A stretch of 64,000 nucleotides of DNA from Bilabrum cf. latius. Lineage: Eukaryota. This document shows positions 1-64,000 of this stretch, piece by piece (within the stretch, counting starts at the first letter, position 1; each line of letters begins with the position of its first letter). The stretch covers positions 1,302,001 through 1,366,000 of the forward strand of contig OZ237736.1 in NCBI GenBank assembly GCA_965178125.1, read 5' to 3'. The translations under genes and the position numbers were made by a program. The notes under the pieces were generated by a model that was not told the origin of the DNA, searched no databases, and worked only from the letters and a program-made list of their open reading frames with translations.

Positions 1-2385
1 CAGCCTGGCTTCCTGCAGCTTGCGCAGGGCGTCCTCTGGGACGAGATCGCCGGCCCGTTCGATGGTGGCCGCTGCGTCGTCGAATCTAGTTACCAGGAAC
101 TCCTCGGGAAAAATCTCGTCCAGCACTGTATTCGTAGACCCTGGATCGTCGTCATCCTCAGACTAGCTGTCCTCATCACCGTTGTTTCCGTTCTGCCGCA
201 GAGACACGACTGCCGCGGCAATCATACGCTGTAGGGAAGGCACCTGCGTCGAGCCGTCATACTTAACCCCCAGCGCAATGGCTTCGTCGACACTGCGTTC
301 CACGCCTGCCTGCTTGATAACTCTTGAACCTCGCCTCTTCACCTCTAGCAGGCACGCAAGTTCGGCTGCGAGGAGTGCAACCGCCTGTGGCTTGCTCACG
401 GCGAGAGACACGAGCCGACGGGCCGTCGGGCCGCCGAACTGCATCATGTCTTTGTACGAGTCTGCGGCAATCGACTCGGCCGTGATCTTTGTGGCTGTGG
501 ATCGATCGCTCTGGCTGCTGCCACCGTCGCTTGGGGCCTGAAGGACACCCGCCGACACGATCTCACGGAGGGCGGCATCGCCACTCGGGAGCCCCATCGA
601 GATGAGCGTGTCGAACGCGGCGTGAGCATCCGACAGCGACCGCCGCAATTTGTTTCGCTGTGCTTTGAGGCGCGTACGAGACATCCAGGCCTCATGGGAG
701 CCGGATAGTTTCTCCATGCGCGCCAATGCCCTCGCCCTGATCCGTTCCTTCCGCCTGCCCTCTGATGCATCGGCGTAGAAATGCCCGGTCGTGTCAAACT
801 CAACCTGGGCAGGAAACACGATGGTTCCAACAACTTCCCGCACAAAGTCTTCTTCGAGTTTTTGCATCATGCGGCGTGCCTATCGTCCAGCAGCAGCAAT
901 TGATTCGCTAAAGTCACCTGGTGACAGTAGTCCGGATGCTAGCGCCTCCGCTTGCAAGTCACACTTCCGAATGGCATCAAGGGCTGCACTGCGCTGGTCA
1001 TTCAGCTGTTTTGCCTACTTTGCAGGCAGCGGAGTGAACCGGAACAGGGTTGCTCCTGTGGCGTGAATTATCGGGCTGTCGTGCGAACCCGAGCTGCCCA
1101 AGCCTTGCGCCCGCCAAAACTCGGGACGGAAGTCGACAGGATACCGTTTGTTCTCGATCCTACGAGCTCGGCGAATCTACTCTGCAGACATCTTCGCTGC
1201 CCTTTTACCCCTGCCTGATACTTTATCCTTGCCCTTGTCATCGCCCTCGCTTCCCTACGGCCCAGTGGAGCCCACTCCCGGTTGCTTTTCCCAATCTGCG
1301 CCCCCGAGAGCATACATGGCCCGCGCGAACCCGGCGTAGTACGAGAATTGCACATAGGCGTCTGCAAGCCAGATCTGCCCGGCCTCTAGCCGAGGCACCT
1401 CGTCGCTTGCCACTGAGTCGAAGCTGGACTCGGAGGAGGAGTCGTCCACGGCGGGCCCCTCTCCTCCCAGTGCCTCTTCCCCGCGTGGCGGGTCTGCACT
1501 GGAGTCCAGCATGGAGCTCTTGCCAGTGGCAGATCCCAGTCCTTCATCCTCTCGCCTACTTTGCCTCTCTCGCAAAGCTCTCCCAGCCCCTGATGATGCC
1601 CCTGCGGCATCCACGATATCGACCGAGCTGCGCCGCCCCCGCCGCACCGCCGCGCAGCCAGCAGTTGCAGCAGAGTTCCCAGCGGTCTGTGCTGCGCGGA
1701 ATGGCACCACATCAGCGTTGGAAACTCGACCAAACCGAGTAAAAAATGCCTTCATGATTCGAGCACAGCCCTTGATTTCGTCTTCGCTGAGCACGTCAGG
1801 CGTGCCAGCTTCCAAGCCCGTCGTGCTGGTTGGACGCCAACCGAGCGCTTCAAGAGGAATGCTCCGAAGCACGATGGTATCTGGGCGGGATCCCGAAGAG
1901 CCACCGATAAACGCACGATCCATGAGCTATGTCAGCCTGTCTTTGGCTTTCTTTGCGTACAGCGATTCGAGGTCTCCCGGACGTGCAGCCTTCCTGGCTT
2001 TGCGCGGGTCTACTCCCATCGCTTTCAGCTGAGCCAATAAACCTCCCTGTACGGCTTCCATTTTTGTTTGCAGACCAGGAGAAAATGTTTCGAGCCAATC
2101 CCACTGCCTGGGTGCTTCAACTGCTGCAACGACCGAGCTCGAATCCCTTGTCTCCTTAAAAAACATTTCGAGCTGGTTCACCGCCGCATCGCGCTTGTCT
2201 GGCCTGCTAAAGTCCACAACTACACCATTTTGATACATGGACACCCATGTTGACACAACATCAGCCAGATCTACACCGATTCCGTCCAAGAGCTGCAGCA
2301 CTGATGCCTGCGCATGAGTGCTGTTGATTTTTGCAGCTACGTGGGAGCAGTACAGTCGAAAGCTCGGCCGAAGTTGAAGGGACAT
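1..2385 (-). CDS. Hypothetical protein, 3' end runs off the window start (TAG=Gln)
   Basis: ORF-track pieces 1927-2385, 1255-1923 and 163-870 share one frame and are separated only by TAG (1927, 1255, 1177, 1015, 880, 163). No TAA/TGA down to base 1. An in-frame TAA at 2389 lies just upstream of the ATG at 2385. No recognisable domain. Confidence 0.7.
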
Positions 2386-2671
2386 GAGTTATGTGTCAGC
2401 TCGTGCAGGGCTTGCGATACTGCATTCCATCCAACGGGACAAGGAGCCCCAATCTGATCTGGTCCAACAGACACTTTGGTTGTTCGCACTCCGAGTTGTG
2501 GCCACTGGTGGCACCACCGTGATGATGATGATGATGGCATGTCTGGTGGGAGTGCATGCATTCCACGCTTTGTTACAGAACAACTAGAATGGCCAGGTCA
2601 CTTACGAGGCAGAGGCAACGACAGCCATTTTCAAGATCTGTGCATATCTGAAGCCACCCCACCCCCGAAGC

Positions 2672-4206
2672 TCATTGCTTCCCCGGCCGGTTGCGATACA
2701 AGGCGAAGAGAGCGAGAGCCGCGGCACCAACGATAGCGATTCCAGCCGCAAATGCGATCGACCATCCTTGGTCCTGACCCTTGCCGCCCTCTACTTCTAT
2801 CGCGCCGTCATCTACAGCCACACCCTTGCCTTCTTTCGTCTAGGCGACCATTACATGGGTACCTGCATTATTATGCTGCAACGATTCTGCGACTTTCTCA
2901 GCCTTGCTGTCTGCGATTAAGGACTCTGAGTCCGTTGAGTGCGCACCCTCTGCCACTACCCCTGGGCCTGCGAGAGCCAATCCACCGCTCGCAGCCGAGC
3001 TGCCATTCGCGCCTCCTGCCGCGGCCCCTGCGGCTGACACAGACTTTTCTGCAGACACCGCGGACTTTCCATCCTGGCCCGCCACTGGGCTAGTGCCTTC
3101 CTCGGAGGCATCGCTCTTTGGTGCGGTGCTGCCACTGGCCCCGCCCCACAGCCCCTTCTTCTAGAACGCCTTCCGAAAGCTTCGGTTGGATTTCTTGCGC
3201 CTGAGCTGGATCTTGGATTTGCACTCCGCGGCCAGCCGCGCGGCCTCTGGAATACCGTGTTCCACAACCGCGGGGTGCGTGAGAGCCTCCTGTGCGGCCT
3301 GCAGCTGGCCCTGGTGGTACAGGGCCTGCCCCAGCCTGTACTGGAACTTGGGCATCAGCCGCCGCACGTCCTCCGGTGGGCACCTGCCGGAGTTCAAGCC
3401 GGAAATAGCCTCCTGCACGGCTTCGACGGCGGGCCCGTACTCCTTCCTCGTCATGTGGGCCTGCGAGAGGTTTCCCATGAGGCGGGCGAGCACGGGGGCC
3501 ACCATCTCCGCCTGCTCGTCTGTCCTGGCCTGCCGAGCGGACCACTCGCGAACGTGCGCAACGCTCTGCAAGTAATGCACAACTGCAGCGTCGACATCTC
3601 TGGCCTTGAAGGCTGCATCCCCCCTAAGCTTCGATCGCATAATGATTCTGACGAGCTGCCCGGTGTTGGAGCTGTATGAGCGTCGCAATTCAGTCGCTGC
3701 TACGCTTGCCACGGCACAGCTTCCATCTGCCATGATCCAATCCGTCAAATCGATCTGATACATTTTGGTGGTGCCGACCATGCTGCGCGGGACGATCGAT
3801 TCCTGGGGAAGTCACGCGGCAAGCAGTTTGGCGGAGCAAAGAGTCCCCTGAGCAGTAGCTAGCGTAAGTCGCTAACGAATGCGTAATTTGGCGATACTCA
3901 CTATGATTCATTCACGAGACCGAGGCCGTATGGGGACTTCACGGGCTCATCAAGCGGGTACAGTATCTCTGTCCTCAAACCTGAGTCGATTACAACCTGC
4001 TCCCGACCAACTGTTGCCTGTCCAAAGGGTAATCTAACTTCAAGAATATCTCCACCCTGTCTAGGGCGCAAAAAAGTTGCCCGGTGCTTGGAGGCAACGG
4101 GCCCTGTACCAAGCCGAATGTTCATCTTCACCCCTGTTGACAAGTTCATGACATCAACAGCGGACAGCACCTAGACATTAGAGCTTGGGTCAGGAATATC
4201 AGCCAT
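2672..4206 (-). CDS. TPR protein with possible degenerate FKBP-like N-terminus and C-terminal transmembrane tail anchor; complement(join(2672..3782,3902..4206))
   Basis: ATG at 4206. Intron 3901-3783 (GTGAGT...CGCGCAG) restores the frame. TPR-like helices: RGDAAFKARDVDAAVVHY, LMGNLSQAHMTRKEYGPAV, FQYRLGQALYHQGQLQAA. Reading through TAG at 4171, 3161 and 2840 reveals a terminal hydrophobic helix WSIAFAAGIAIVGAAALALFALYR followed by TGA at 2672. The FKBP similarity is weak. Confidence 0.75.
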
Positions 4207-4282: not shown

Positions 4283-5209
4283 ACCTTCTGTCGACACCTT
4301 CGTCGGATCCCCGTTGAGCCGGCTCAGCAAAGGGCTGAATGCGTGGGACAATCAAGGTTCTCTTGTTTGCCTGTGGCCCCCAGGGTCAGTGTGCACATTG
4401 CCGTGTTGCAAAGTGGTCCTGTGACCAGGGGGCGTCTTCCCGCTACGTGTTTGTGCATCGAGCAGCACCAGCACCTGCCCAAGAAACTGTGTTGCAGATC
4501 GTCCAGTCACCATCGAAATGGGGGTTGCAGCAATTCTATCTTTATTACTGCACGTCTCGACATGCAGCCAGATGCTTGGTGCCGAGACCTGCAGGTCTGG
4601 GTACAGCGACCACTCCATTGCGACCAAACCCAACAGCGGAACATACCTCATCGCCGCGCCACAGCAAGCAAACAAGAATTCACCTCCATCGCTACATTAT
4701 CGAAGAGTTAGCTTGGATTCGGCCTTATACTGGACCGCTATTGGTCTTGATTAGCTATTACTAACTATCTTTGGCTGTTACGCCCATCTGAACTTCCAAA
4801 TTGGGTATATCTGGAGGTGAGCTCGTGGCTCGTAGTTTGATGGACCTCTTGTCGTACAAACTGCGTAATTTCCATCGCTCCACCCCCCCTTTGCTGCAAA
4901 TTTGGTCTATATTACAAATAGTTGATGATGCAATGGGTAAAAAGGTTCTGGGAAGAGGTCGCTTTGTTGTTCACCTCGCTCGCGATCCCTTCCTCAGCCG
5001 AGATGAGATGCGATCACGCCACCTGGTGCCATCGCGTACATGTCTACTTGAATTTTGAGATTCAGCAGACAAGGTTCGATCGTTTGTCTGATATGTGGCT
5101 TCATCTAGCAACTCCTGCGGTACTGAATACCGGTACTTTGTTTGATCGACTTCAACATTGCGCAGTTCAGCAGTTTGTGACTAGGGGGTTTAAGATTGCG
5201 CAGGAAATT

Positions 5210-8200
5210 ATGTCAGCGCAAGACAATTCTCAAATCGATAATTATGGACCTGGTCTGCTCGGCACGATGCCTACTAGCTCTGAGCAAGCCAGCAAGCAAT
5301 CGGATGCCGGGTCCATCACTGGCAGCGCTGTGCAGCTTTCGAGGTCGGACCCATTGGTATCTGATAGAACTCAGCTGTTCAACAGCAATGGACCGATACG
5401 ATTTGCGCCTGCAACTGCCAATAACTCCACATCCGCCGCCGTTTGGCCTACCGGTGTGCCGCTGACAACTAGCGACCAAAGGCGCTCATCACCGCAGGCA
5501 CAGCAGCCCGCGGCACAGGCACCCCAGCCCCAGCCCGCGGCACAGGCACCCCAGCACCAGCCCGCGGCACAGGCACCCCAGCACCAGCCCGCGGCACAGG
5601 CTCCCCAGCACCAGCCCGCGGCACAGGCACCCCAGCACCAGCCCGCGGCACAGGCACCCCAGCACCAGCCCGCGGCACAGGCACCCCAGCCCCAGCCCGC
5701 GGCACAGGCACCCCAGCACCAGCCCGCGGCACAGGCTCCCCAGCACCAGCCCGCGGCACAGGCACCCCAGCACCAGCCCGCGGCACAGGCTCCCCAGCAC
5801 CAGCCCGCGGCACAGGCACCCCAGCACCAGCCCGCGGCACAGGCACCCCAGCACCAGCCCGCGGCACAAGCACCCCAGTACTAGCTCACCCCGCATAGTC
5901 ACCCATAGATGGCCCCAGCCTTGTACGATCCAGTCACACAGGCCGGTAGTGGAGGCATCATGGCAGCAGATGGGCACGGCAACCCTGCCTCCTCCTCTTC
6001 ATCATCTTCAGCGTCCTCCTCTGCAAACAGCATGGCAGCCAGCGTGGCGCAAGACCCGGAGCTCAAACAACTGGAGGAAGCCACAGGGCTCAAGCATTTT
6101 CGCTGGCCTGCGGTCAACGGCAATGGCAGCGCAAGCGGACACGAGAGCGACCAGTCCAGCGAAATGCGGATCACGCGCATCCCCATCGGCCCCGATCCAG
6201 TGACAGGCGAGATGCGGTTTCGGTACAAGTGCCACTGTGGCAGCACTTTTAAGAGCGTCGGGCAGCTGCGAGCTCATGCCAGATACAAGCACAAGTCGGG
6301 TCGTGCGTGCCAGTGCCCGTGCGTGAGTCCCTTCTGTCCCTGCCTGCTGTGCATTTATGGCTGCTGTTCGTTCCTCTGTTAGCCCCGCATCAAAAATCAC
6401 ATCATGGAGAGAGATCTTATTGCATTCCATTTGCACCGCAGTGTGGGCTACGCCTCGCGCAGCCGGGCAATGCGGTCCGGCACTTGCAGACGCAGCACCC
6501 CGGTGTGCGGCCCTACCGCTGCCGTGCGTGTGGGGCCACTTTCCTGAGCCATTTCAAGATGATGAAGCACCGGAGAGTGGCTCACGGCATCGAGGGCGAC
6601 CGAAGTGGTATCGTCAGCGTGGAGGACATCGATCTCTCTGTGTGCCCTGCTGCCGCTGCTGCTGCCCAGGGGCGGCCGTTCTTGGTGGGGCAGCAGGACG
6701 ACGCCTCCAGGTCCCAGGCAAACCGCCGCAGGGGAGGTGGTGGCAAGCGCCGGTCTCCGGTCCAGACTCCCATGGCAATACCGAGCCCGCTTGCGATGCC
6801 GTGGTCGTTCGAGGCATAGGCGCCAGTCGCTTCGGCTGCTGATACTCAGACTAGCACCTCTCGCCCGCCCTCCGCGAAGCGACCGCAGCAGAGAGGCTCT
6901 GATGCCGCGTTCGATTCCTCTGCCCTGAGAGCGACGTTCTCTCGCGCAACCACTTCCGGTCGCAAACGTACCCGGTCTCGGAAGGCAGCACAGCTGGACA
7001 ATACCTTCATGAACAGCGACCTTGAGCTGGACGAGGAGGCTCCCAGGAGCAAGCGGGCCAGAACCACCGATGGCGGAATGACGGAAGCGCTTGCACAGCT
7101 GGCCGAGACAGCCAAGGAGGCGCAGCAGCAACTCGGCCCTCTACCACGCGGGGTGCGACTGCTGCACTCGGCCAACCTGCGCACGGCCTCCAGCGAAGAA
7201 GTCAGTCTGGCCCACCTGATTTCGATCATCCCACCTGGATACGTGCTTGCCCCTCGTGCTTCCGTGCTGAGGCCAGGAGAGCCCGCCGCAGAGCGAGGCA
7301 TCATTGACCCGGACCAGTTGCGGTACCTGGCGGCCAGCCAGGTCGATGAGTTGTAGCCTCTTCGTGAACTTGCCAGCCTCTCTTAGGCAACGCCCATCGA
7401 CGCAAAGGATGGCTCAACTGCGGACAGCGGTCAAACGGCCTCAGCCCCAGCCGCTGCAGCATCGGAGTCTGTGCCTGCAGCTAGCCGCAGCACAACGCCG
7501 CAGGAGGACGCCGCGGCAGCGACTGAAAATACTAATGAGATTGGTGAGACCGATCCTGCGGACGGGGGAGTGGATGCTGCCGATTAGAGCGGCAAGGCAA
7601 CATCAGATGTGGGAGCACGCTCACACAAGAGGCTTGGTGCTGACCCTCAAGTCATCATGGACCGGCTTGTCTTCACGCTAGGCCCGACTGGCCAGATGGT
7701 GCCCGCAGTGTTGCAAGTAGAAGCTGGTCGCGTTGCAATTGCGATGGAGCACCACTGGCCGAGCGGTGTGCAACCCACGGTTGCGCCAGATCTAGCTAGC
7801 ATCGTCAGAAGACAGGCAGAAGTCAGCAATGGGATCCAGCCGGCCATGGAAAGTCTGCCACGCTCGCGGTCTGGACAAGCTGGACGCAACCGCAATTAGC
7901 ACGCTAAAGCTGCCTCACGACAAGCTCATCCTTACGTGCATAGAGTACCACCCCAAAGCATGGCGATTGGTGCTGCGCACAGCGGGCATCCTTCCCTCTT
8001 CGACCTCGCTAGCGTGACATCGCCGACCTCTGTCTCATCAGATACCCGCCCAAGGAAGTGGCACTGCCCTACGTGCGATCGCGCATTCCGCTCTTCCAGC
8101 AACTTGAAGCGGCACCGCGTGACCGTACACCACTAGCCGCTGACGAGGACGTGCTTCATGTGCTCCGCGAAATTCTGCGACGAGCACGACCTCGGTCCGC

Positions 8201-8676
8201 ACCTGTCATCGAAGCACGGGATTTCCATGGATGCCTATGAAGCCGAGTTCGGGGCACAGGAACGCGCTGGAATCACTACCAAGACATCGCCCGGGGACAG
8301 GGTTCTGGTCGTGTCACATACGAGGACTCTTTCCTCAAGCGCACCTCGGGCTGGTGTGCCCTCGTAGCAGCACAGTCTGCCCCAACCGCCGCAGGGCTGG
8401 TCGCAGTCGAGCGCCTAGACGACGCAGGGAGAGCGCACTGATGCGGCACCTGTGTCCATGCCGCAGGCATCAATGCAGCTGGATAGGGGTACCCCGACCA
8501 GTGTGACCACAAACGCTGCATCTGCATCGTCTGCTCAGCAGCCCAGTGGGGCCGGGCCTGAGCCCCGCACAGGCACCGAACAGCAGTTCGAGCACAGTGG
8601 TGGGGGCGGTCTCCCGCCTTTACCCGCAGGAGAAGCACCCATGGAAGGCGGGGCAGCACCCATGCAAGGGACTTGA
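5210..8676 (+). CDS. C2H2 zinc-finger protein (about 5 fingers) with Gln/Pro-rich repeat; join(5210..6322,6442..8676)
   Basis: Fingers: YKCHCGSTF..LRAHARYKH, CPC|CGLRL..VRHLQTQH, YRCRACGATF..MKHRRVAH, WHCPTCDRAF..LKRHRVTVH, CFMCSAKF..LGPHLSSKH. Intron 6323-6441 (GTGAGT...CCGCAG) joins finger 2. About 10 in-frame TAGs; TGA at 8674. The start could be ATG 4925 instead of 5210. Confidence 0.85.
5501..5887 (+). repeat. Coding 27-bp tandem repeat (about 14 copies) encoding QPAAQAPQH
   Basis: Unit CAGCCCGCGGCACAGGCACCCCAGCAC. The degenerate last copy has TAC TAG CTC where the consensus has CAC CAG CCC. Confidence 0.95.
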
Positions 8677-13784: not shown

Positions 13785-13824
13785 TTGCCATTCTGGCGCA
13801 TATTGCAATGAGGAAGATATTTAA

Positions 13825-49300: not shown

Positions 49301-50355
49301 GCCGTGGACGAAGCAGGGCAGGTTCCATCCTGCCTGGCGCTGACGAGCACGGCAGCTTGAGCCTGCGGCCGTGGGATGGAGACCGCGACTTGGAACCTCA
49401 CGAGCTGGATGGTGGTACTGCAGCACATGGTGAAGGTTAGAGCTCCGCTGGTTCGGTAAGCATAGAAGAGCGAAGGGCGGCGAACAGAGGTCTCGTGCTG
49501 CATGGTCGCACGGGATCAATCCAAGGAGGATCGATCGCAGGCACAGAGGCGGGAAGCAGCGGAGATGATAGCGTATCCGATGTCGATAGCGATGCGGATT
49601 CGCTCGACCCGCCATTGCAGCACCAGTTTCCGTGGGGCGGTGCCGAGCCCGGCCTCGCGGATCCTACGGGTGCGTCGGTAGGGTCCATCCGCCGACGAGC
49701 TTGGACTGCTTCGGTGCTGCATGATGTGGGTAAGGCTAGCGCCTCGATAGACGGCATACAAGAGATGGACCGTGGGTCCAGTGGTACCGGTGATGCCAAT
49801 GCCGCCTTCCAGGTTGGGGATGGTGCCGCGACACGAGGAGGCAACAACGGGCCCATCCAACACACGCCTGACCTGCACCCTACTTCGATTTCTCTCGCAC
49901 GGGCTGAAAAGTTGCTAGGCAGCAGCCTTAGGGGCATGCCGTCTCTGCCTGGGCCGGCTATGCAGCTCTTGTCGGATGCGCAAGCGAATGGTGGTGATGT
50001 GGAGAACAGCGAGGTTGGCCTGTCGTTGTCGCCGCGTCGAGACAAGGTGCGTCGTGACGACAACCCAAGGGGCGAGCCAAGCACGCAAGAGCGTGAAGAA
50101 TTTGACGGTAGCTTCAACGCTGGGTGGTCCGCAGCCATTGCAGCCCTGGAGGCAGAACTAGTGGGGACAAGCGGGGGTGCGAGAGAGGATGAAGCTAATG
50201 GAGAGGCGGCCAGAGAGGAGCAGCCTGCAGGCGAGACGGCTTCACCACCAATGGGGGCAGGTATTACGGGTAGCATGGGCAGTGAACGAGCCAGAGACGT
50301 CAGTAAGTAGTTTCTCCACGCGCTGCAGAGGCTAAAGGATCGCGGCACTGGCTGA
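46318..50355 (+). CDS. Patatin-like triacylglycerol lipase (SDP1/Tgl3-5 family)
   Basis: SYKQWRKAANELD, GTKLAIEQF, GRTALCLSGGG, SGTSGGS (GxSxG), SAVAASCALPGL, DGS, DIPVD[TAG]LASLF..FVVSQVNPH. 7 TAGs; TGA at 50353. Confidence 0.9.
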
Positions 50356-53500: not shown

Positions 53501-56500
53501 GGTGACTCCAAGCGAAGCCATATCAATCGCAGGACCGGTTAAGTTCGATCTAGGTTTCAAGCCCAGCAGCTCGGCAGGTAGCACCGACACTTGTGCAGCT
53601 TCACGCCCCTCGGAGGACGACCTCGACACTGCCTGGAGTGCTTGCGCGATGGAGGCGATGGCACCACCGCTTGAATGGCTAGTGCTGGCGCCACTTCCGC
53701 GCTCAGAATCCAGAGACGGCCGTTCGTTGGAGATTGTGATGCTCCCATCAAACGATGATTGCGCATTAACGAAGTGAGTCTCGACAGCCCTCTCTATCCG
53801 GGACGCAGACTCGTGTGGGAGCCATCGAAGAACGCAATCCAATGGAAGTAGCACTGCAACACCCAGAATAGGGCGTCGAATCGCATCCTGAGAATAGGCT
53901 GTTGGCAGGGGCACCAAAACCATGCGTGGCTGCTGCAGTGAATGGACAAATTCGCTCACTGGGCCGTCAACAACGATGCCATCGCCGCCAACCGCTGCTC
54001 TGTACTCCCAGACCCGAACGCTGTCGTGCGCCAGCTCCGCAATAGTACGTTGATCTGTCATCACGCTGTCACTTCTATCGATGAATGCAGTCTCATCATC
54101 GGGGCCGCCTGCTGCTTCCGCGCTGCTCGCTCTGCCTTCGTCAACAGCGCCATCCGCACCCCGGTGGCCCCGCATGAATCGAGCCAGGGCGCTGGATGCG
54201 TGCACTCCAAACCACCGCTGGAGCTCGGGTTCAAACATCTCAAGTGGAGTGTGGCGGGGGCCCAAGATCTCAATCTCAAGAGCAAGCGATCGCGCGGCCG
54301 GCCCGAGTTCGCCTCCACGTGATCGAAGCCTGGATAGCGCAACCTGCCTCTCGTCACGCTGCAGCTGAGTGAGAACGCGAGCAGCGCTTGAGCTTATCGT
54401 GTGCTGGTCCAACATGTGCATGTCTGCCCGCGATGACTTGTGCCTGCCTCGACCACCGCTCTTGCGTTGTAGGGGAGCAACTTTGGCGAGACGCGTGCGA
54501 CCAAGTGCAGTCACGACTCCGTCGATTGACACCTTGCGTTTGCACACCGGACACACAGCGCTTCTAGCAATCCACTCCATGACACAAGCGCAGTGAAACA
54601 CGTGTCCGCACTCCAGTGAAGACAATAACTAGTTGCTTTGATGCACATTGGATTGGCACACTGCGCATATTTCTTCTTCATCCTCGGTGCTCTCGGTAGG
54701 GTGGCCGTGGTTGGCTTGGCTCGTTTCTGCTGCTGAAGCGACTACCGGGTCATCCTACTGTCCCGCGTCTGATCTTAGCTACTCCGCATTAGTGGTGGTA
54801 GCTGCAGCCCCCGACCCACTTGCTGGTCCCGACCTTCCGATCCCGGCCGAAGCCTTCAAGGGCTACTCTACTCCAACGCGCCGGTTCGCAACATCCACGC
54901 AACAGATGGGTCGAGTGAGAAGCAGCTGATCAGTCGCGTGCACAGCAAGGGCCATTCGCTTTGCGTCGCTGTCTGCAACAACAGTCCTAGGCTTGGTCTC
55001 CGACTGCCCCGACTGAATTGACGCTGGCCATGCGGCAGCTCGAGCCTCAACTTGAGCTGCAATTGCCTGGGGAGTGCCGGCATCAAAGGCTTCCATAGAG
55101 TGCAGCAAAGCAGCGCTCTGGCTCGGGAGTCTGGGAGGTGCCGGAGCGAGCATGAACAGGCAGAGGCTGGCGAGTCGAGGCAGGGGCACAGCAGCAGAGC
55201 TCCATTCGAGCACTAGCTCGAGCCCACGCTTGGAAACTGGCGGCAACGAGCCTATGTACATGTATTGGACTAGAGCCGCCAGCGCTGCCTGAGTTGCTAC
55301 GAACGCACCTGCTGAATCTATGACACCATCATCGCCAGTGGCGCTGGCCGATGGCAGCTCAAATGCCGGCCATTTTGCATCTGAGCGACTACCTTCCGCC
55401 GTGACCTGCTTGAGACGATGCATAGCGCTCAATCCGAACCGCCTTGCGGCCACAAACGAGTGCACAAGGATGGAAGCAGCAACTCTGGCACTACCTGCTC
55501 CTGATGCAGAGCCAGCTGCTGCATCTGTTGCATCGCTGCAGACGATCCCACGCTCAACATTCACCGCCTGTTCACCTGGGCCAGGCCCGCCCAGGATGGG
55601 CACGTCGCTGGCTAACACACTGCCAGTCGTCAGGACGAGGTACTCTGCACGGGGTAGCTCGACCTCGCTCTTATGCAAGAACACTCGCTCGCCAAAGTCC
55701 TGGATGGCAGTCTCGGCCAGATCCCTGCGCCGCAGAAGGCCGTGCCTCAGGCCATCGACCTCAACAGCGCCCGCCTGTGGCACCGCCGCCGGAGCTGGCG
55801 GTGTGCCGTTGGTGGCAGTGCTAGCTCGCAGCACTTGGTCATGGCTGGGTCTACGAGTCCTTGCCATTTCAACTATGTGGTTCAGCCGAACGCCCCTGGT
55901 CCAGTCCGCCCCGATGCACATCTCTGTCCAGATGGCCTCACCGATGTCCCTCCGCCAGGTCCCCGCCATGGCACGGGCTGCCTGCGGAGCCACGCGAGGA
56001 GCGCCTTTCACTGGCCTGGAGCGCACAGCAAACACTTGCCCGTGAGACTCCAGGGGCGTGCACGCCCGTGAAGCAGACTCGCCACCCGAGTCTCCTCCCT
56101 TCTCGCTCGTTTGCTTGCCCAGTGCCCACCAGTTGTAGGTGCTCGCGCTCGCTTGCCGATCCAACATAATCTCAACGGGATAGTCCTTTGCAATTGCAGT
56201 GACTCCGTCTCCGCAGGTGATAGCCCTGGCGTTTTGGCTGGATACGTACGGAAAAGGCACGCCTTCTCCCCACTGCAGCACCACTGCAGGCTCGAGTGGG
56301 CCGTTCCTGCAAGTGCGCAGCCTGCCCGCCAGCCGCTCTCCAGCAGGTGCGAGGTTGGTGTACCTCTCTCGCCAACGATACAGCGGCTCATCTGCTTGCA
56401 ACCCTAGTTCATCGTCTTCCACACCCGCAGTGTGGGCCTATCGCCCCGGCATCCACTGCGACCTGTGCATATCGTCCGTATGGGAGTGGACCCTGGTGGA

Positions 56501-57661
56501 GGAGTAGTACCTCTGCTGCACCGGGGCGAATGAGCCATCCCTGATGCACGCTCTACCGATGCCGCCAGAGGCGAGCATCACAGCACAGTGCCGCTCACCG
56601 GCAGACACGAACTGCGCGTCAGCGGCGAGGAGGCTAGGCACCGGGAGAGGCTCCGCATGCTGCCAGGCCCCCGTGGTGCCGATCCCCAGCTAGCCATGAT
56701 CATTGCGGCCCCATGTATACACGCAACCGCCCGAACCCAGCAGGATGGCATGGGAAGCCCCGGTCGACACCTGAACGACGCGCTCGTGGTCAATCCCAGT
56801 TAACCGGCGCGGGATCTGGGGCGGGCTGTACCTCGCCAGCCGAGTGCTCGTGTCTCCCCATTGCACCACCTCGCCCTGAGTCGTCACCACCGCGGTCTGT
56901 GATCTCCCCACAGAGACGGTTTCTGCTCGTGGGCTCCACTTCGCACTGGACCTGGAGCTGCTGCTCCCCCGTGCCCTGCCACTGGCAGCGGGGGCCGGTG
57001 CCGCAGCGCGCGCTTCCTTCACTCCGGACCCAGAATGCGTGGCAGCCAAGTCGACGCTGATGGGAAGCTCCGCAGCCTACTTTTCCCCGTGCCCGCTCTT
57101 GCTATCACGGGAGTAGGCAACATCGGCGCTCGCGGGAACAGAGCTGGCCTAGGCCTCGGCCAAATGCTTGGCTGATGCGGTGTCTATCTCGTGTGCTCGC
57201 TGGAACAGCCTGACCGGGGTGGGTACGAGTGCGATCTCGTCCACGCTGTTGACCGTGACACCGAGTTGCCCGTTTCGGTTGGACCCAAACACCATCAGCC
57301 GGCCGTCCCTCAGGACCACGGCCGTGTGCGAGGAGCCCACCGCGAGGCTGCACGCGTGCTGCGTCGCCAGTCCCGGGACCTTGGATGGCAACCCACCTGC
57401 GCTCGTCCCTGACGAGACGGCGCCAAACCTGTCGTCTCCAAATGTGTAGATAGCTCCAGCAGTCGAGATCGCCGCCCCATGATGGTCACCGAGAACAATC
57501 CTAGAGAGAGGCGTGGTAGGGAGCACCTGCTGCGGAGGGCTAAACACAACGGCCGGATCCGATTCATCCCCCACTCCACCCTTGCCGCTACTAAAATCCC
57601 CGACTGCCATGGATGAGCCATCCGTGAGCGATAACCCTAGAGTGTTGAGACCATGTGACAT
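50531..57661 (-). CDS. Large RCC1-repeat / BTB-like / RING-H2 protein (putative E3 ligase, ~2370 aa)
   Basis: Thirteen ORF pieces in one frame joined across about 17 TAGs. RCC1 repeats FGSNRNGQLG and WGRNDHG[TAG]LG, BTB-like AALAALVQYMYIG, RING-H2 CAVC..LECGHVFHCACVMEWI..CPVC. ATG at 57661, TAA at 50531. Confidence 0.8.
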
Positions 57662-58163
57662 CGACTGAATTCGCGTGCTTGCCAGTTGTTCCAGGTCCTC
57701 ACACGTCGTAGTAGCGCTAGACAGGCCACGTCGGGCAAGACGGGGACAAATTATCTTGTTCTCGTGACCATCATAGACTCCGTGCCACAAAAACTGGCCT
57801 ATCGCTAGCTATGACGTCGAAAATTCGCTTCTTGCAAATCCGGAGACCTACACGAAGAGCGCTTGCATGAGAATTGACGACGCAAAATCGTAAAAGGTGC
57901 TGAATAATTCAACAAAAACGAGATTGCGAATGCATAGGCTGACTCCGGCTGCTAGGAACGCCGTATTGCTCATCATGTCCTCGGATCCTGACGTCGCGAA
58001 TCCCGCAGAAGGTTCGATTCGCTGTACTGTTGCGTGTCGAAATACTTTAATCAGAGGAGAGTTTGCAACTCTGCAACGCTCGCTTCTTGCGCCACAATAA
58101 GACTGCTGATTTGCTACTGTTGACGATTACTGCTTGGGCCCTCGTCATTAACATAAGCACACC

Positions 58164-61100
58164 ATGAACACTTGCAGTGAGTGCCATCAAAGTCGCAGCA
58201 AGTGGCACAATTAGACTATGAAGTTGCCCCGTGCTCGCGTCCCGTGCGTTGAAGCGCTGGAGCCGAATAATCAAACAATTCGCGCATGACATGGAAGGTA
58301 AATGATATGGTTCAACTTGATTCGAATCTCTCTTCCATGCAGGCCTGGCGCTGATAGCTACGTGCCTCAGCTCCTTGAGTTGGGCGTACACGCCGGTTGT
58401 GGCCGACCTCACCACCGAGATCGATCTCAGCGAATCCGATGGGGAGGCGCTGCTGTTCGATGGGATTTCTGTCACAAATGTAGACGATGATTCGAACGAT
58501 GTGAATGTTGAAGCTGTGGTGACCATCACGGATCCCGATTGGGGAAATGATGCTCTTGCTTCTGCTAGCGCTACATCAGTAGTCGCTGGGGATGAAGCAA
58601 ATGAGGTCAAGCCTGCTGTAACGTTTTCGGCGATGACACCGTCGGCCATGGCAACTGCTCTCGCGACAGTTAAGATGACGAACAGCCAGGACCGTCCAGC
58701 AGTTCGAGACCGCTCCGTCCAGCTCGTCGTGACAACGACCGACGAATCTGGGGAGTCCGCAACGTCGGTAGTTACCGTCAGCATTGTGCCCGTCAACGAC
58801 GAGCCTACCTTGGACATTGATGGTACGAGCAACGTTTTCACGGAAGGCGGCGACCCGATCAAGATCCTGACCGGAACCACGGCCAGCATTACGGATCCGG
58901 ACGACATCAACATGACAAAGCTCAAGGTCGAGATTGAGAATTTTTGCGATGCAGATACAGACGTGCTTGAGCTCGCAGAAGATTCAGATGTGTACGGCGA
59001 CTTCACCACCACTTGGGTCGCAACAACTGATGGCTGTACGTTCGAAGCGGTGCCGGCTGCAGAGAGCGGGCTAGCTCTCATTGCCGACTGGGAGACTCTG
59101 CTGGGCGACCTCTAGTTCTACTCCCAAAACGAGACCGTTGTCGTGGAAACTGCACGGTGGTTCTCGTTCGCTCTGAGCGATGCATATTCCCAAGGAGACG
59201 GCGACCTCGATTCCGACGACACTGAGACCGCCCCGGTGGAAGCAAGCGCGAATGGGGTCGTCGTTACCTTGACGAACACTAACGATGCACCTGTGATCGT
59301 CATACCCGATGGAGCAGACGACAGGTCGACCACCGAGCTGACCATCGCAGAGAATGCGGCAGACGACGTGAATCTGGCTGCTGGCAGCTCGGGCGACAAG
59401 CTGGAGCTCTTGATCTACGACGTCGACAGCGGCCTCGGGGATTTCACCGTCGAGCTGACCACGGTTGGTGATGAACCAACCGCCGACGTGCTGACCTCTG
59501 CAAGCCTCGATAAGTCTGCAGAGTACGCAGTCTATGATTCCGAGTCTAATCAGCTATCAACGGACCACTGGGGCGCTGACCGCTTCGAGTTCCTGACCAA
59601 GACGACCGCAGCTACCGCTTCGGCCACCGACCGCACGAGGAGCCAGTACTTTGATTTCGAGAACATCGACCCTGCCACGGGCCTGGTGGGCTGGAAAGAC
59701 TCGTACGATGCGGACACCAACACCTTTGCTCTGCGCGTGACTGCGGAAGACGGCGACGGCGCATCGAGCAGCGCGGTCATGTACTTCAAGCTGACCAACG
59801 TGGATGAAGCGCCACAGCCCATTGAGCCTAGCACTGGTAGCACTGTGGATAGGGAAGGCATCGCTACGGAGGTCTACGGAATGGTAAGCCCGCGCAAGGA
59901 GTACAGGCAGGCAGTCGACGATGAATACGTCGTGCAGACCGTGAGCGTGGTGAAGTCGTTCGTTCAAGTCGACGAGGCAACCCATGCCCTGTACGGCGGC
60001 GACTCCACCGACACGCTGGAGGTGACGTACAAGAAGGCCGACATGATCCATGGGCAGCACAACAGGATCAAGTTCAACATGGACAGCGTCAGCGTCGACC
60101 CGGAGGGAGGCACCGTCACCTACGCACTCGAGTGGAAGGGATACCAGGCCACCAAAGCCGAGTCGACCGTCACCGATGTGGGCGAAACAGTCGACGCAAC
60201 TGGTGTGAACGTTGATCTCGACGACAGTAGCGATGATCCCAACTATATATTCGATGAGTTGAGCCCGCTGAAGTGGACCTGTGAGGGCAGCATCTGCGAG
60301 CTCAGCGGCACGCCCAGCTACGACACGCCGTACAAGCTCGATGCCGTGCACGGCAGCCGTACATCTCCCGCTGCCAAGACGCTGCATTTTGAGCTGACCG
60401 CTACCGACGACGATGACACGACAACCGTCATCAAGTTCCAAGTCGACATCGAGATTGCCGGCTGCATGGACGTCCGGGCCTCGTACGTGACGTGCGCCGG
60501 GGGCTCCTTCGAAGACAACGATTGCACCAACTTCCTGACCCAGACCGCCAGTGGAACCAACTTGGCCACTTTTGTGGATGGCGGGTTCGTCGCGACGGAC
60601 GCCTCCAAATACACGGAGGCACTGGCCCCTGCCAACTCTGCTGGCCGCTTCAACGAGGAGGCTACGGTTCCCAAGCCGACCTGCGCCTTTGCTCCCCGCC
60701 GCATGGCGACTGGAGCTGGTACTCAGCAGGTGGGCGGATCTGCAGTGGCCGCATCAAGCAGCGCTGCGGCTACGCTTGTGGACGGCGCTGCCGACGCAGC
60801 TGCCCTCGAAGAAGTGCTCAACTCCCTGCGCGGGACCACCTTCCTTGACGTCGACACGGACCTTCTGGACGGTGCCACGACCTTCTCGCTGGAGCAGATC
60901 GATGCCTCGGACTCGGTCATCATCCCGGAGGGATACGACGGGATCGCCTCGGCAGCCGTGAAGGTCGGGCCCGCGGGGCTCGTGGTCGGCACGAACGACG
61001 ATGGCGTGCCCGGCTTCAAGACCACTGTGTTCCCCGGTGCGTTCGACACCTCGGCGTTCTTCTGCGCGCCGCTGCACGCGACGCTCAAGGACTCCACGAA

Positions 61101-62553
61101 GCCCGAGCTGGGGTACAAGGCCCCGGAGCCGTGCGAGCAGATCGAGGTGGCCGACGGAGGGGCCTGCGTGTGCTTCCACAGCAGCAACTCCATCATCATC
61201 CCTGCCCTGCGCGCCCTGCCGCAGGCCGATTTCCTGCCGAGCCGGTACTACCAGAGCGGTGGGGGGTGCCCCGCCGAGTGCTCCGGCCACGGGTTCTGCC
61301 GAGCTCACGGCAAGTGCGCTTGCTTCGCCGGGTGGGGCGGGTACGACTGCGCCAGCCGTACGTGCCCGTACGCCGATGCCTGGGCCGCGGACGACACCAT
61401 CTCCCGCCGGCCCCTCGAGTGCTCTGGCCGGGGCTCTTGCGACCGCGGCTCGGGCACGTGCGGCTGCTTTGACGGCTTCGAGGGCCCCGCCTGCGAGCGG
61501 CTGTCGTGCCCCAGCGGGTGCAGCGGGCACGGCAAGTGCAGGTACATCAACGAGCTGCCCGACGTCACTGGGTACAGCGAGTGGGACGCGGAGCGCATCC
61601 AGGCCTGCGTGTGCGACGGCGGATACTTTGGCGCCGACTGCAGCCTGCGCACGTGCCCCCGCGGCGACGATCCTCAGACCCTCTGCGACGCCGGCCAGAA
61701 CCACAAGCAGGAGGTCACCGTCACCCTACCGAGGACAACCTCCGGGTCCGTATCTCTCGAGTCCGGCTCGGGAGCTATCGCACTGCGCTTCACAGGGTCG
61801 GACGGCACGGTGTACCGGCTGCCCCGCATCGACGACGTGGTGTCCACCGGGGCGTACTCTGCGTCCGCGGTCAAGTCGAGGATCGAGTCGGCTTTCAAGT
61901 CGCTGCCATCGTTTGCCGTGGACGACGTCACCGTGACCCCGCCCGCGGCGTTCGACCCGGCCACCGACACGGACTTCGAGTTCACGGTGGAGTTCACCGG
62001 GGTCAACACCCCGGGGGACCAGGCCCTCCTGGCGTGCGACGTCGCGTGCCCGCTGCCCGGGTGCAGGCCCAAGCACAACCAGCTGCGGCTCAGCGACCTC
62101 ACCGGCATCACGGCAGTGGAGCCATCGTCGGGCCTCGAGATCACCGCGCCCTCGGGGGCCGCCGGCGTGCAGTTCGCCGTCACCTTCACTGCCAACGCCA
62201 ACCTCGCGTCCGGGTACTCGTTTGAGGTCGTCCGATCGGCGCTCGCGGCGGACGGGACTGCCAGCAGTCCCGCATCTCTCATAACCGCTCCCGTGCCGCT
62301 CAACGGAAAGGAAATCACGGTGGCGAACGGATTCAGGTTCAAGATCGATTCGACTGCCATCGCCGGTGCGGGCACGGAGACGTTGCAGTTCTACCCAGCA
62401 ACATGCTCGGTTGCGGTTACTCAGCGCGCTGGGCAGAGCTTTGAAAGCGCAGAATGCTCCAACAGGGGCCTATGTGATCGCTCCAGCGGCCTTTGCGACT
62501 GCTTCGAGGGGTACGCAGGCTCTGCATGCTCCGACGAGATCGTGTCTGTGTAA
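58164..62553 (+). CDS. Secreted mastigoneme-like (Sig1/Ocm1/Mas family) EGF-repeat protein with long acidic cadherin/Ig-like N-terminal region; join(58164..58176,58343..62553)
   Basis: Signal peptide MNTCSLALIATCLSSLSWA after intron 58177-58342; an alternative first exon exists near 58290. Cadherin-like PVNDEP, TNTNDAP, TNVDEAP. C-terminal pattern CSGHG..RTCP..AW..ECSGRGSCDR..YSEWDA..CPRGDDP...ECSNRGLCDRSSGLC. One TAG at 59113; TAA at 62551. Confidence 0.8.
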
Positions 62554-62743
62554 GGCATCGCGATCCAGGGTCGACCGACAGTCTAGGCTTGCCTGAAAAG
62601 TTGTTTAATATCAACCACTAACAAACTGAATCAGATACTTGTGCTCCACTTATGGTATAACTGCGAATATAACACAACTTGAGTTGCTTTATGTGTGCGA
62701 CTCGGAGTGCCCTCAAATGCCCAGTCACACTCCGTTCCTGGGC

Positions 62744-64000
62744 ATGGATGCGAAGAATGCCTAGCTGGCATCGTCACTTGTAAAGTCTACATACATTGAG
62801 CAGGGAATGGCAAACGTGGTCCGATTGAATCAGAGGCTAAAGGAACTGTTGTCACAATAGCGGCTTCCACCGGAGGGCTGGAGTAGCGATGACGTCGAAA
62901 CTTTGTTGCGGCAATTAGGTACGATGGACTCAAATAGTTTTCAAGGCAGTGTCGGCGCAGGGGAGCGTGAAGGCAGAGTTGCGTGCGAACTTGTCCACCG
63001 TCGACATTTCGGCATGGCTCACGGAATTGGACGTTCTGGTGACATTGCCGCCGTGCAACCAAAGGCGGCAGGGTCTTCCATACTGAATATGCTTGTGCAC
63101 AAGCTTGCGCTGTAGGTAGTTAAGATTGCTGGCGTGACGCGGGCAAAGTCGTGCCTGGTGTTGCCAACTGCAACTGGGATGACCTTAACTCTTTGTCTGC
63201 TGGCGTTGCGAGCCTCTCGGCCCAAGGGCCGGTTCGTAATATGGCCAAGAATTGATCAGAAGGCTTGTTTCAAAAGCATTTGCACGAGTGGAGCCGAGCC
63301 CATCATCATTTAGGCGGCAGCTCGTGGGGTGGGTGGTGCTGGCGCCGCTGCTGCTGGAGCAACGCCGGCGCGGGGCTCTGAAGATGAGCTGCGCACGGAC
63401 CTTGAGGCAATTAAAAGAGCTATCGCCGAGCACGGGGCCGATAACATCCTATGCGTGATGAGCACGAGCAGCTGCTTTGCTCCGCGCAGCCACGATGACC
63501 TGCAGGGCATCGCGCGGATCTGCGCCAAGGCGAGCGTCCCGCACATCATCAACAATGCGTACGGCCTGCAGGCTGGCCGCATTACGCACGTCATCAATGA
63601 AGCCTGCCGAGTCGGTCGAGTGGACGCCTTCGTGAGCTCAACGGACAAAAACCTCATGACCCCGGTGGGGGGGGCCATCGTGAGCAGCCCGAGCAAGGCC
63701 TTCATCGAGAGCGTCTCCACGACGTACCCAGGGCGCGCATCGGCGGCTCCTCTGGTGGACGTATTTGCCACCTTGTTGAACCTCGTGAGTGTCTCCGACG
63801 CTTTTCCGCACCGTGAACACCCTGCAAGCTCTCCCTCCGTCGCCCAGGTGCCTATACCATTACTATTGTTATTTTTCTTTCAATAATTGTGTATCCGCGA
63901 TCACGCGCGCAGGGTGCCAACGGCTACAAGAAGCTGCTGGCCGAACGCAAGGCCGCCTTCAAGCATCTCAGGGAACAGATGGAGGCGTGGGCCAGCAGGC
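62744..64000 (+). CDS. SEPSECS: O-phosphoseryl-tRNA(Sec) selenium transferase, 3' partial; join(62744..63784,63913..>64000)
   Basis: [85 protein letters not shown]. Intron 63785-63912 (GTGAGT...CGCGCAG) gives [13 protein letters not shown]. TAGs at 62762, 62858, 63113, 63311. Confidence 0.95.

Follow-up and report, generated by a model that had tools for sequence, protein, structure and literature searches.

The DNA stretch of 64,000 nucleotides analyzed here (hereafter, the window) is, with a probability that we put at about 0.9, nuclear DNA of a GC-rich eukaryote that reads UAG as glutamine and uses UAA and UGA as its sole terminators. These codon meanings had been proposed on the basis of the letters of the window (the sequence-only reading) and are now supported by conserved protein motifs, internal repeats, an orthologous environmental contig, and transcript contigs.

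Open reading frames and gene content

The window is ~60% GC, gene-dense, and intron-poor. With TAG read as a sense codon, it contains 18 long open reading frames (ORFs), which represent 17 genes and cover 58,759 of the 64,000 bases (91.8%), as expected from the earlier claim that this change yields intact genes tiling the window. Under the standard code, the longest ORFs outside the repeat at 30 to 36 kb are of ~500 to 600 amino acids. The number of stop-to-stop ORFs of at least 3,000 nucleotides is 3 with the standard code, 12 with TAG as sense, and 3 with either TAA or TGA as sense. The proteins obtained by reading TAG as sense are ordinary eukaryotic ones, and their Pfam domains span the in-frame TAGs.

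The 18 ORFs comprise 19,668 codons, including 138 in-frame TAGs, with at least one TAG in 17 of the 18 (the exception is g08); that TAA and TGA are absent from them is a matter of construction, as it follows from the ORF definition. The two remaining frames of these ORFs contain many copies of each triplet: 169 and 186 of TAG, 59 and 90 of TAA, and 266 and 470 of TGA. The true gene ends are TGA in 12 to 13 cases, TAA in 3, and TAG in none, with two genes extending beyond the window. A hand count of about 130 TAGs and of 12 TGA and 3 TAA ends was essentially right, and the earlier figure of 16 TAG-containing genes among 17 holds after ORFs 4925 to 6547 and 6559 to 8676 are merged. Codon-position GC contents (positions 1/2/3) are coding-like on both sides of the in-frame TAGs, 0.64/0.52/0.60 before and 0.65/0.55/0.58 after, and drop to 0.51/0.52/0.49 past the terminal TGA or TAA.

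Unless indicated otherwise, the genes described below end in TGA. On the left side of the window, g01 (1..2385, minus strand), which has no Pfam match, carries 6 TAGs and has its 3' end beyond the window; it is followed by a gene for a TPR protein (g02; 2672..3781, minus strand; 2 TAGs). The two ORFs mentioned above probably form one C2H2 zinc-finger gene (g03+g04; 4925..8676, plus strand) with an intron near 6400 to 6450, a 27-nucleotide coding repeat at 5504 to 5885, and 11 TAGs, one of them possibly intronic. Next come g05 (8799..13784, minus strand; 7 TAGs), which encodes 1,661 amino acids without a Pfam match; a cytosolic carboxypeptidase-like gene with the Peptidase_M14 domain (g06; 14217..19040, plus strand; 13 TAGs); and g07 (19268..22705, plus strand; 8 TAGs), with a weak glycosyltransferase-like match. 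Two successive minus-strand genes encode EF-hand proteins: g08 (22864..24180; GC3 of 0.91) is the sole gene free of TAG and also has no CAA, and g09 (25264..29799) carries 14 TAGs; the true start of the latter is probably further downstream, because there is overlap between its first ATG and the end of g10.

The central gene, g10 (29528..39454, minus strand), encodes a kinesin-1-like motor combined with ~5.6 kb of 25-residue coiled-coil repeats, carries 26 TAGs, and ends in TAA (29528 to 29530). Beyond it lie g11 (39431..41395, plus strand; 5 TAGs), with a weak RhoGAP match; the gene for anthranilate synthase component I (g12; 41531..43435, minus strand; 1 TAG), whose start ATG is in exon 1 at 43435; a short-chain dehydrogenase gene (g13; 43504..44742, plus strand; 5 TAGs); a gene for an EF-hand and ankyrin protein (g14; 44840..46129, minus strand), in which 9 TAGs make up 41% of its Gln codons; and a gene for a DUF3336 and patatin lipase (g15; 46318..50355, plus strand; 7 TAGs). 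The RCC1-repeat and RING-finger protein gene g16 (50531..57976, minus strand; 19 TAGs) ends in TAA (50531 to 50533), as does g17 (58633..62553, plus strand; TAA at 62551 to 62553), which encodes a secreted-type protein with teneurin-like EGF domains and has a single TAG and a GC3 of 0.79. The last gene, g18 (62717..64000, plus strand), encodes SepSecS; its exon 1 (62717 to 63784) contains 4 TAGs, at 62762, 62858, 63113, and 63311, and its exon 2 runs from 63913 past the end of the window. The last ORF is closed by a TAA that is not a true gene end, because it lies inside the GT..AG intron of this gene (63785 to 63912). Altogether, three introns were identified in the window, in g12, g18, and g03+g04.

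Residue encoded by UAG

The TAG at positions 37043..37045 (minus strand) occupies the place of the invariant Gln in the kinesin P-loop YGQTGAGKT (residue 804 of g10), and the one at 56690..56692 (minus strand) that of the Gln in the RCC1 motif GQLG (residue 429 of g16). Three repeat families provide an internal comparison: in g10, the position of the TAG at 32264..32266 (minus strand) is CAG in 65 sister copies, and that of a second TAG (33488 to 33490) is CAG in 55 sister copies; the position of a further repeat TAG is CAG in 13.

An environmental contig, L001, encodes orthologs of g17 (77% identity) and SepSecS (61% identity) with conserved gene order and intron position and has 5 in-frame TAGs of its own. 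In the pairwise alignments of the window with L001, the 9 TAG sites are opposite a Gln codon in 6 cases and opposite Asp, Glu, and Ala in one case each; with Gln accounting for ~5% of residues, a binomial estimate for at least 6 matches of 9 is ~1e-6. With translation table 15, BLAST reads SepSecS without breaks in the window, in L001, and in a further contig, L005, and the genes of L001 and L005 end in TGA. Use of UAG for Gln is a trait common to at least one environmental relative and probably to a second one.

In a Pfam comparison, the same 9 segments were scored with eight readings of TAG, and the scores of 12 non-overlapping families were summed. Gln came out on top (1330.0), followed by Lys (1322.7), Glu (1322.3), Ser (1312.8), X (1303.7), Tyr (1298.9), Leu (1291.4), and Trp (1285.0). 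The margin of Gln over Lys and Glu is only 7 to 8 bits and is due chiefly to the matches of kinesin and RCC1 and to one of EF-hand type.

TAG codons in transcripts

The stretch was found in four DNA-run assemblies of one sample and in three runs (X5 to X7) from two studies other than that of the DNA run. We infer that X5 to X7 are RNA from a splice joint and from uneven depth (the automatic label for X5 is “probably DNA”): all three lack the 90-nucleotide GT..AG intron of g12 (43239 to 43328), which the DNA run retains, and their depth differs from gene to gene. The region from 36500 to 50400 has 40 TAGs. The listed pieces of these contigs, from which rare variants have been dropped, span 30 of them, with no changed letters. 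In g14, the X5 and X6 contigs have the same letters as the window at each of the 9 TAGs, and the listed X7 piece (45170 to 46138) does so at the 7 that it covers. Retention of UAG in mature mRNA, which the sequence-only reading had pointed to as a check on its claim, is borne out to the extent that these spliced contigs are indeed transcripts, and their unchanged TAGs argue against editing, splicing, and assembly error.

UAA and UGA as terminators

UAA is a real stop, not a sense codon. Of the three TAA gene ends seen, the one with ortholog support is that of g17, which falls at the same C-terminal residue as the TGA end of its L001 ortholog. UGA closes 12 to 13 genes, and the composition turns noncoding beyond these ends. 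UGA is presumably used for selenocysteine as well, which would be expected because the window encodes SepSecS, an enzyme of selenocysteine synthesis.

Alternative readings

Could the TAGs be untranslated, i.e., represent assembly errors, pseudogenes, sites of RNA editing to CAG, or missed introns? Code changes are rare a priori, which is all that speaks for this explanation apart from the existence of introns in the window, but no altered letter was reported at any TAG across the DNA run X1 and runs X5 to X7, the sole splice-type joint in the 13.9 kb spans none of them, and TAG is used in the same way in an independent metagenome contig. Moreover, 138 nonsense codons of one triplet only, in 17 otherwise intact ORFs, are unlike pseudogene decay, and we regard this explanation as having next to no chance of being correct. 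A sense codon for a residue other than Gln, most plausibly Glu or Lys, is a highly improbable reading as well. It draws on the Pfam sums, which are just 7.7 (Glu) and 7.3 (Lys) bits under that for Gln, with slightly better scores for Glu in 5 of the 12 families and for Lys in 2, and on a repeat TAG that corresponds to AAG in 9 sister copies; one of the kinesin TAGs falls where RFRPLN normally has its Leu. Alignment columns from distant homologs either carry no information or favor Asp or Glu, and by themselves they do not point to Gln: across 60 homologs of SepSecS, the columns of its four TAGs contain, respectively, mostly Ser, Asn, or Thr; Gly or Arg; Asp (57 of 60); and Glu (57 of 60), and the TAG column of anthranilate synthase is Arg in 59 of 60 homologs. 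Against Glu and Lys stand the TAGs at the invariant Gln of kinesin and RCC1, the TAGs in place of CAG in the repeats with 65, 55, and 13 sister copies, and the CAA or CAG codons opposite 6 of 9 TAG sites in the closest relative, and the sums for Leu, Tyr, Trp, and Ser are 17 to 45 bits under that for Gln.

Two further alternatives concern the terminators. If UAA and UAG both encoded Gln, as in the ciliate-type table 6, TAA might merely be too scarce at 60% GC to appear: A-ending codons are disfavored in this GC-rich genome (204 CAA versus 686 CAG), and the absence of TAA inside the ORFs is in part built into their definition. However, if TAA tracked CAA, ~41 in-frame TAAs would be expected beside the 138 TAGs, whereas none is seen in 19,668 codons of this one window, in ORFs drawn to exclude TAA. 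In addition, TAA closes three genes, and for one of these the L001 ortholog has its TGA stop at exactly the corresponding place; reading TAA as sense makes the ORFs no longer; and the TAAs that precede start codons have no long open frame upstream. We therefore give this possibility very little weight. A dual meaning of UAG, with Gln inside genes and termination near some 3' ends, as in Condylostoma and Blastocrithidia, would fit the location of the last TAG near the annotated stop in several genes, such as g10 (16 codons before it) and g15 (14 codons before it). Nevertheless, all of the complete genes terminate in TGA or TAA, where the coding-type composition stops, none of the homology-supported C termini coincides with a TAG, and in g13, by-eye (unscored) reading shows more of the dehydrogenase after the TAG at residue 261. 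Such context-dependent termination is unlikely, and UAG as a Gln codon, with UAA and UGA as the terminators, remains the preferred reading.

Comparison with known codes

The nuclear code of the fornicate Iotanema spirale is described as having UAG for Gln with UAA and UGA as stops (PMC5304391, PMC11687900), and its eRF1 as having the GTS motif altered by T32G (PMC5304391). According to these accounts, it shares with the window all three codon meanings, the nuclear location, and the uncoupling of UAG from UAA; it belongs, however, to an unrelated lineage, being an anaerobic metamonad. UAG alone is also reported to encode Gln, through independent origins, in Protocruzia tuzeti and two phyllopharyngean lineages of ciliates (PMC11687900). 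As far as that report goes, theirs is the same UAG-only reassignment as in the window. Ciliate macronuclear genomes are usually AT-rich, and phyllopharyngean chromosomes are gene-sized, whereas the window is a continuous stretch of at least 64 kb with 60% GC and 17 genes. In NCBI translation table 15, TAG is Gln and TAA and TGA are stops; this table has the same codon meanings as the window but is a bookkeeping device, silent on lineage, origin, and mechanism.

Codes in which both UAR codons encode Gln (table 6) have been described in many ciliates, some ulvophytes, Hexamita, Streblomastix, and Amoeboaphelidium. Here, too, a stop codon has been captured for Gln, with a suppressor derived from tRNA-Gln as a likely common route, but UAA is also a sense codon, whereas in the window it terminates genes and has no in-frame occurrence. 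Reassignment of UAG without UAA is further reported for the uncultured rhizarian exLh and some phyllopharyngeans (to Leu) and for Scotinosphaera (to Ser) (PMC11687900); the residues differ from that in the window, where Leu and Ser are 38.6 and 17.2 bits, respectively, under Gln in the Pfam sum. The same codon-to-residue change as in the window is described for crAss-like and other gut phages (PMC9523058), but these infect bacteria with RF1 and RF2, whereas the window belongs to a chromosome of a eukaryote, with spliceosomal introns, a kinesin, and RCC1 repeats.

Codon usage and a possible route to the code

The 1,028 Gln codons comprise 686 CAG, 204 CAA, and 138 TAG. The share of TAG decreases with rising GC3, down to 1 of 31 Gln codons in g17 and 0 of 7 in g08. 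UAG is a minor synonymous Gln codon, which, like CAA, is avoided by the most codon-biased genes.

No tRNA genes were found in the window, L001, or L005, and the window does not include an eRF1 gene. UAG would be decoded by a tRNA-Gln with a CUA anticodon, which differs by a single base from that of the CUG isoacceptor, and UAA would be left unread because C34 pairs only with G. The eRF1 may have lost efficient recognition of UAG while keeping that of UAA and UGA. Where UGA ends most genes, there would be few UAG stops to lose, which could have made the capture of UAG easier.

Phylogenetic placement

In the anthranilate synthase tree, the window and one transcript (local support, 0.92) join the stramenopile Cafeteria (0.905), with oomycetes placed elsewhere and Chloroflexi nested within. 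In the patatin lipase tree, the clade of the window is beside Vitrella, Chromera, Cryptosporidium, and Gregarina (supports of 0.79 and 0.49), so that its closest named relatives are, with weak support, myzozoan alveolates. The earlier impression of a stramenopile is in line with the former tree but not with the latter, which leans weakly to alveolates. No named ciliate neighbors the window in either tree, and the best SepSecS matches (49 to 55% identity) are mostly from animals.

A literature search, with most subscription papers outside its reach, found no report of UAG encoding Gln in this lineage, in agreement with the sequence-only reading, which knew of no such case. A code with UAG alone reassigned to Gln is already known elsewhere, in Iotanema and a few ciliates, and seems undescribed in the lineage of the window. 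The code of this organism is a rare kind of code change, in a lineage where it apparently had no earlier description.

Gene content and in-frame TAG codons

The GC content is 60% across the whole window, and under the standard code long open reading frames (ORFs) are few, except for a repeat at 30 to 36 kb. When TAG is treated as an amino acid codon, the window is tiled by 18 long ORFs, which lie on both strands and cover 58,759 of its 64,000 bases. Domain searches identify their products as a kinesin-1-like motor with a long coiled coil, anthranilate synthase component I, a short-chain dehydrogenase, an EF-hand/ankyrin protein, a DUF3336-patatin lipase, an RCC1-repeat/RING protein, a cytosolic-carboxypeptidase-like M14 protein, a teneurin-EGF-type protein, and SepSecS, as well as TPR, zinc-finger, RhoGAP-like, and EF-hand proteins, which is an ordinary eukaryotic set. 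Two plus-strand ORFs, at 4925-6547 and 6559-8676, are probably joined by an intron into one zinc-finger gene, which gives the 17 genes counted in the sequence-only reading; its expectation that standard annotation would fragment most of them also holds, as 16 of the 17 would break. Spacing between genes is very tight around 46143-46258 and 50355-50531. The convergent patatin lipase and RCC1/RING genes have stop codons 175 nt apart, and a single 11.7-kb contig of the sequencing-run assembly X5 spans both.

In-frame TAG, reported as widespread from the sequence alone, occurs 138 times in the 19,668 codons of the 18 ORFs, and a single EF-hand gene (g08) is free of it. The zero count of in-frame TAA and TGA is a consequence of how the ORFs were drawn, and controls were therefore used. 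The count of ORFs of at least 3000 nt rises from 3 under the standard code to 12 when TAG is sense and stays at 3 when either TAA or TGA is sense. In the two off-frames of the same ORFs, the triplet counts are 355 for TAG, 149 for TAA, and 736 for TGA. GC content by codon position within the ORFs is 0.635/0.535/0.644, a pattern that is kept for 30 codons on both sides of in-frame TAG and flattens to about 0.5 past the terminal TGA or TAA. Upstream of the start codons, more TAA and TGA triplets follow within short distances, so that no long frame is concealed there by a TAA. These controls confirm what was seen in the sequence alone.

Identity of the residue at UAG

The assignment of UAG to glutamine, proposed from the sequence alone, is borne out by conserved motifs, summed Pfam scores, repeat copies, and pairing with the environmental contig L001 (described below), all of which agree. 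In the kinesin motif YGQTGAGKT and the RCC1 motif GQLG, the Q is encoded by TAG (codons 37043-37045 and 56690-56692, respectively). In a Codetta-like test, nine identical segments were compared with Pfam with TAG read as Q, E, K, S, Y, L, W, or X; the seven residues whose tRNA anticodons lie one change from CUA are all among these readings. About 22 TAGs fall within the Pfam-matched stretches. Summed over 12 non-overlapping families, the scores were 1330.0 bits for Q, 1322.7 for K, 1322.3 for E, 1312.8 for S, 1303.7 for X, 1298.9 for Y, 1291.4 for L, and 1285.0 for W. The lead of Q over the next readings is thus only 7 to 8 bits, with five of the 12 families slightly favoring E and two favoring K. 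Within repeats, TAG sites of the kinesin coiled coil are matched by CAG in 55 and 65 sister units and that of a zinc-finger protein by CAG in 13 units; at another repeat TAG, 9 sister units have AAG. Alignments with distant homologs of two enzymes gave no Gln signal: among 60 SepSecS homologs (every second of the best 120 listed), the four TAG columns were mixed S/N/T/Q, G/R, D (57 sequences), and E (57 sequences), and for anthranilate synthase, 59 of 60 homologs have R opposite the TAG.

At 5504-5885, a 27-nt repeat in the zinc-finger gene encodes 14 copies of a PAAQAPQHQ unit, the last of which is degenerate and has TAG for CAG. On the minus strand at 30237-35858, the kinesin gene contains about 74 tandem copies of a 75-nt unit, with a period of 267 nt at the higher-order level. 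They encode 25-residue coiled-coil units into which a variant unit is set at intervals, and long ORFs in the five remaining frames here are by-products of the repeat.

UAA, UGA, and codon usage

The sequence-only reading had genes ending in TGA or TAA, which stands after one correction: the TAA at the end of the last ORF lies inside the SepSecS intron. True gene ends are TGA in 12 to 13 cases and TAA in 3 (the kinesin, RCC1/RING, and teneurin-EGF-type genes). The teneurin-EGF-type protein ends in DEIVSV-TAA, and its ortholog on L001 ends in DELVTV-TGA at the same position, an alignment that lends direct comparative support to UAA as a terminator. Judging by the ratio of CAA to CAG (204 versus 686), about 41 in-frame TAAs would be expected beside the 138 TAGs if TAA had the same meaning, and none is seen in the ORFs as drawn. 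The presence of SepSecS (62717-64000) implies a selenocysteine system, in which UGA would have a second reading, as a Sec codon in some genes.

UAG behaves as a non-preferred synonymous codon. It accounts for 138 of the 1028 Gln codons, and its share drops toward the top of the GC3 range: 0/7 in the EF-hand gene g08 (GC3 0.91), 1/31 in the teneurin-EGF-type gene (0.79), and 1/11 in the anthranilate synthase gene (0.72). In the EF-hand/ankyrin gene, the share is 9/22. The EF-hand gene g08 (22864-24180) differs from its neighbors in GC3 (0.91 versus 0.57 to 0.79) and encodes its Gln residues without TAG or CAA; going by this codon usage, it is probably very highly expressed. A comparison of its standard translation with the ESM Atlas returned generic EF-hand clusters only, with no informative taxa. 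A single gene contains up to 26 TAGs, so that efficient decoding is required: by simple arithmetic, decoding at 90% per site would leave about 6% of kinesin chains complete.

Introns, transcripts, and the artifact and editing alternatives

Three spliceosomal-type introns were found in the window: the probable one uniting the two zinc-finger ORFs; a 128-nt intron in SepSecS (63785-63912, plus strand); and a 90-nt intron at the 5' end of the anthranilate synthase gene (43239-43328, minus strand; GTGAGA..TCGCAG, GT..AG). The last of these places the start codon in exon 1, at 43435, and yields a protein of 604 residues.

Assembly error, editing, and splicing were examined as alternatives to translated TAGs. 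The stretch 36400-46300 is complete in four runs of one sample and largely present in three runs from two other studies; runs X8 to X12 contain small parts of it and do not enter the comparison below. Assemblies of one DNA run (X1) and of runs from the two further studies (X5 to X7) were compared with the window over 36500-50400. X1 has even depth and zero splice joints and retains the anthranilate synthase intron. X5 to X7 show several-fold differences in depth among genes, have gaps at the divergent promoter between the EF-hand/ankyrin and patatin lipase genes, where their contigs end at 46138-46142 and resume at 46255-46259, and share a 90-base joint with CT..AC ends (GT..AG on the gene strand) that is absent from X1 and removes the same intron in all three. 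We read X5 to X7 as transcript assemblies on the strength of the splice joint and the uneven depth, an RNA status that is inferred, as no matching run is recorded as RNA and the automatic label is at most a tentative "RNA?", with X5 labeled "probably DNA." Of the 40 TAGs in 36500-50400, 30 lie under the listed contig pieces of X5 to X7, all unaltered, and the other 10 lie outside these pieces and speak neither for nor against; the sole changed letter, at 43872, is outside any TAG. UAG is thus retained in apparent mRNA, a check that the sequence-only reading had proposed, at the resolution of contigs, from which low-frequency edited forms may escape.

In the same region, a 72-nt tandem duplication at 41333-41478 takes in the 3' end of the RhoGAP-like gene together with its stop codon. 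The X1 and X5 contigs break at 41398, and several runs have loose ends just upstream, at 41059-41076, which suggests copy-number variation or a fork in the assembly graph.

Environmental relatives

Exon 1 of SepSecS matched 22 loci in JGI metagenome contigs. The locus L001 (3105 bp, 57% GC) encodes the C-terminal 248 residues of an ortholog of the teneurin-EGF-type protein (77% identity), followed on the same strand by SepSecS (61%) with an intron of about 229 nt (2357-2585) at the same position as in the window; by gene order, strand, and intron position, it is syntenic with the window at 61.8-64 kb. L001 has five in-frame TAGs and no other in-frame stop. Opposite the window TAGs, L001 has CAA, CAA, CAA, and GAC, and opposite the L001 TAGs, the window has Q, Q, E, Q, and A, so that 6 of the 9 TAG sites in the two genes face Gln.

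A second locus, L005 (1743 bases, 60% GC), encodes a SepSecS that is 56% identical, in a 557-codon ORF ending in TGA. It has no intron at the position shared by the window and L001 and is perhaps a transcript, being intronless. Its single in-frame TAG aligns with an Asp of the window and human enzymes, and its source is probably another member of the recoded clade. Other loci with long SepSecS matches have zero in-frame TAG, except for L009, which has all three stop triplets in frame and seems to be interrupted by introns. The reassignment therefore characterizes a small clade rather than a single strain.

Placement of the organism

In a collection of 5.8 billion proteins, no recoded window protein was among the best 120 matches listed for each of three queries, and the best identities were 55 to 59%. 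SepSecS reached 55%, with mostly animal sequences, and anthranilate synthase 58%; the patatin lipase reached 59% over only 40% of the query, and its top-ranked match was 48% identical over 71%. The best named matches and two single-gene trees give conflicting placements with weak support. In a FastTree phylogeny of anthranilate synthase, the window sequence joins an unnamed transcript (0.92) and then Cafeteria roenbergensis (0.905), with oomycetes elsewhere and Chloroflexi nested inside. In the patatin lipase tree, it falls in an unnamed clade with Vitrella, Chromera, Cryptosporidium, and Gregarina as neighbors (supports of 0.79 and 0.49). The source can be said to be a SAR-like protist; the stramenopile affinity proposed earlier fits the first tree, the second leans weakly toward alveolates, and one may reasonably guess at a heterotrophic stramenopile. 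An aphelid identity was set aside: Amoeboaphelidium is reported to read both TAG and TAA (UAR) as Gln, and the neighbors of the anthranilate synthase and patatin lipase are not fungal. The eukaryotic anthranilate synthases nearest to that of the window (Cafeteria, oomycetes, and unnamed transcripts) are about 52 to 53% identical to those of Chloroflexi, as they are among themselves, which, together with the nesting of Chloroflexi, hints at an ancient transfer of this gene.

Comparison with known codes and implications

Nuclear code changes are rare, and the separation of UAG from UAA is rarer still. Two papers (PMC11687900 and PMC5304391) describe reassignment of UAG alone to Gln in Iotanema spirale, Protocruzia tuzeti, and two phyllopharyngean ciliate lineages, and the code of the window is of this same type. 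They also list UAG as Leu in a rhizarian and some ciliates, UAG as Ser in Scotinosphaera, and UAR as Gln in many ciliates, ulvophytes, Hexamita, and Streblomastix; a further split of UAG and UAA, in one oligohymenophorean ciliate, is named in PMC11687900. By analogy with the cases described in PMC5304391, UAG would be decoded by a tRNA-Gln(CUA) that does not read UAA, and eRF1 would recognize UAG poorly. Scans for tRNAs and Rfam families found nothing in the window, L001, or L005, and the window contains no eRF1 gene.

A full-text literature search, with most subscription journals outside its coverage, found no nuclear UAG reassignment for a stramenopile or labyrinthulid, in agreement with the earlier claim of a lineage without a described case; it returned mitochondrial or unrelated papers only, and the one paper naming both cites a mitochondrial study. 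A real nonstandard nuclear code of the rare type in which UAG alone means Gln is well supported by one window and an independent relative, and the lineage is probably undescribed. Our broader reading, to which we give a probability of about 0.4, is that the window organism, L001, and probably L005 belong to an environmental clade of SAR protists with GC-rich genomes and few introns, possibly bicosoecid-related bigyran stramenopiles, in which UAG is Gln and UAA is stop, and that this code arose independently outside ciliates and metamonads as the first altered nuclear code among stramenopiles.

If so, this would be a high-GC case that needs a route other than loss of G-ending codons under AT pressure, and the three stop codons would have three readings: UAA as stop, UGA as stop or Sec, and UAG as Gln. 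A further independent origin would provide a new system for studying how eRF1 distinguishes UAG from UAA, since both DNA and apparent RNA data exist for the lineage, and would allow a test of whether scarce UAG stops in UGA-dominated, GC-rich genomes favor capture. A table-15-type code is needed to translate the assemblies and protein sets from this organism and its relatives, and the reading of UAG as Gln could be used to track the clade in metagenomes.
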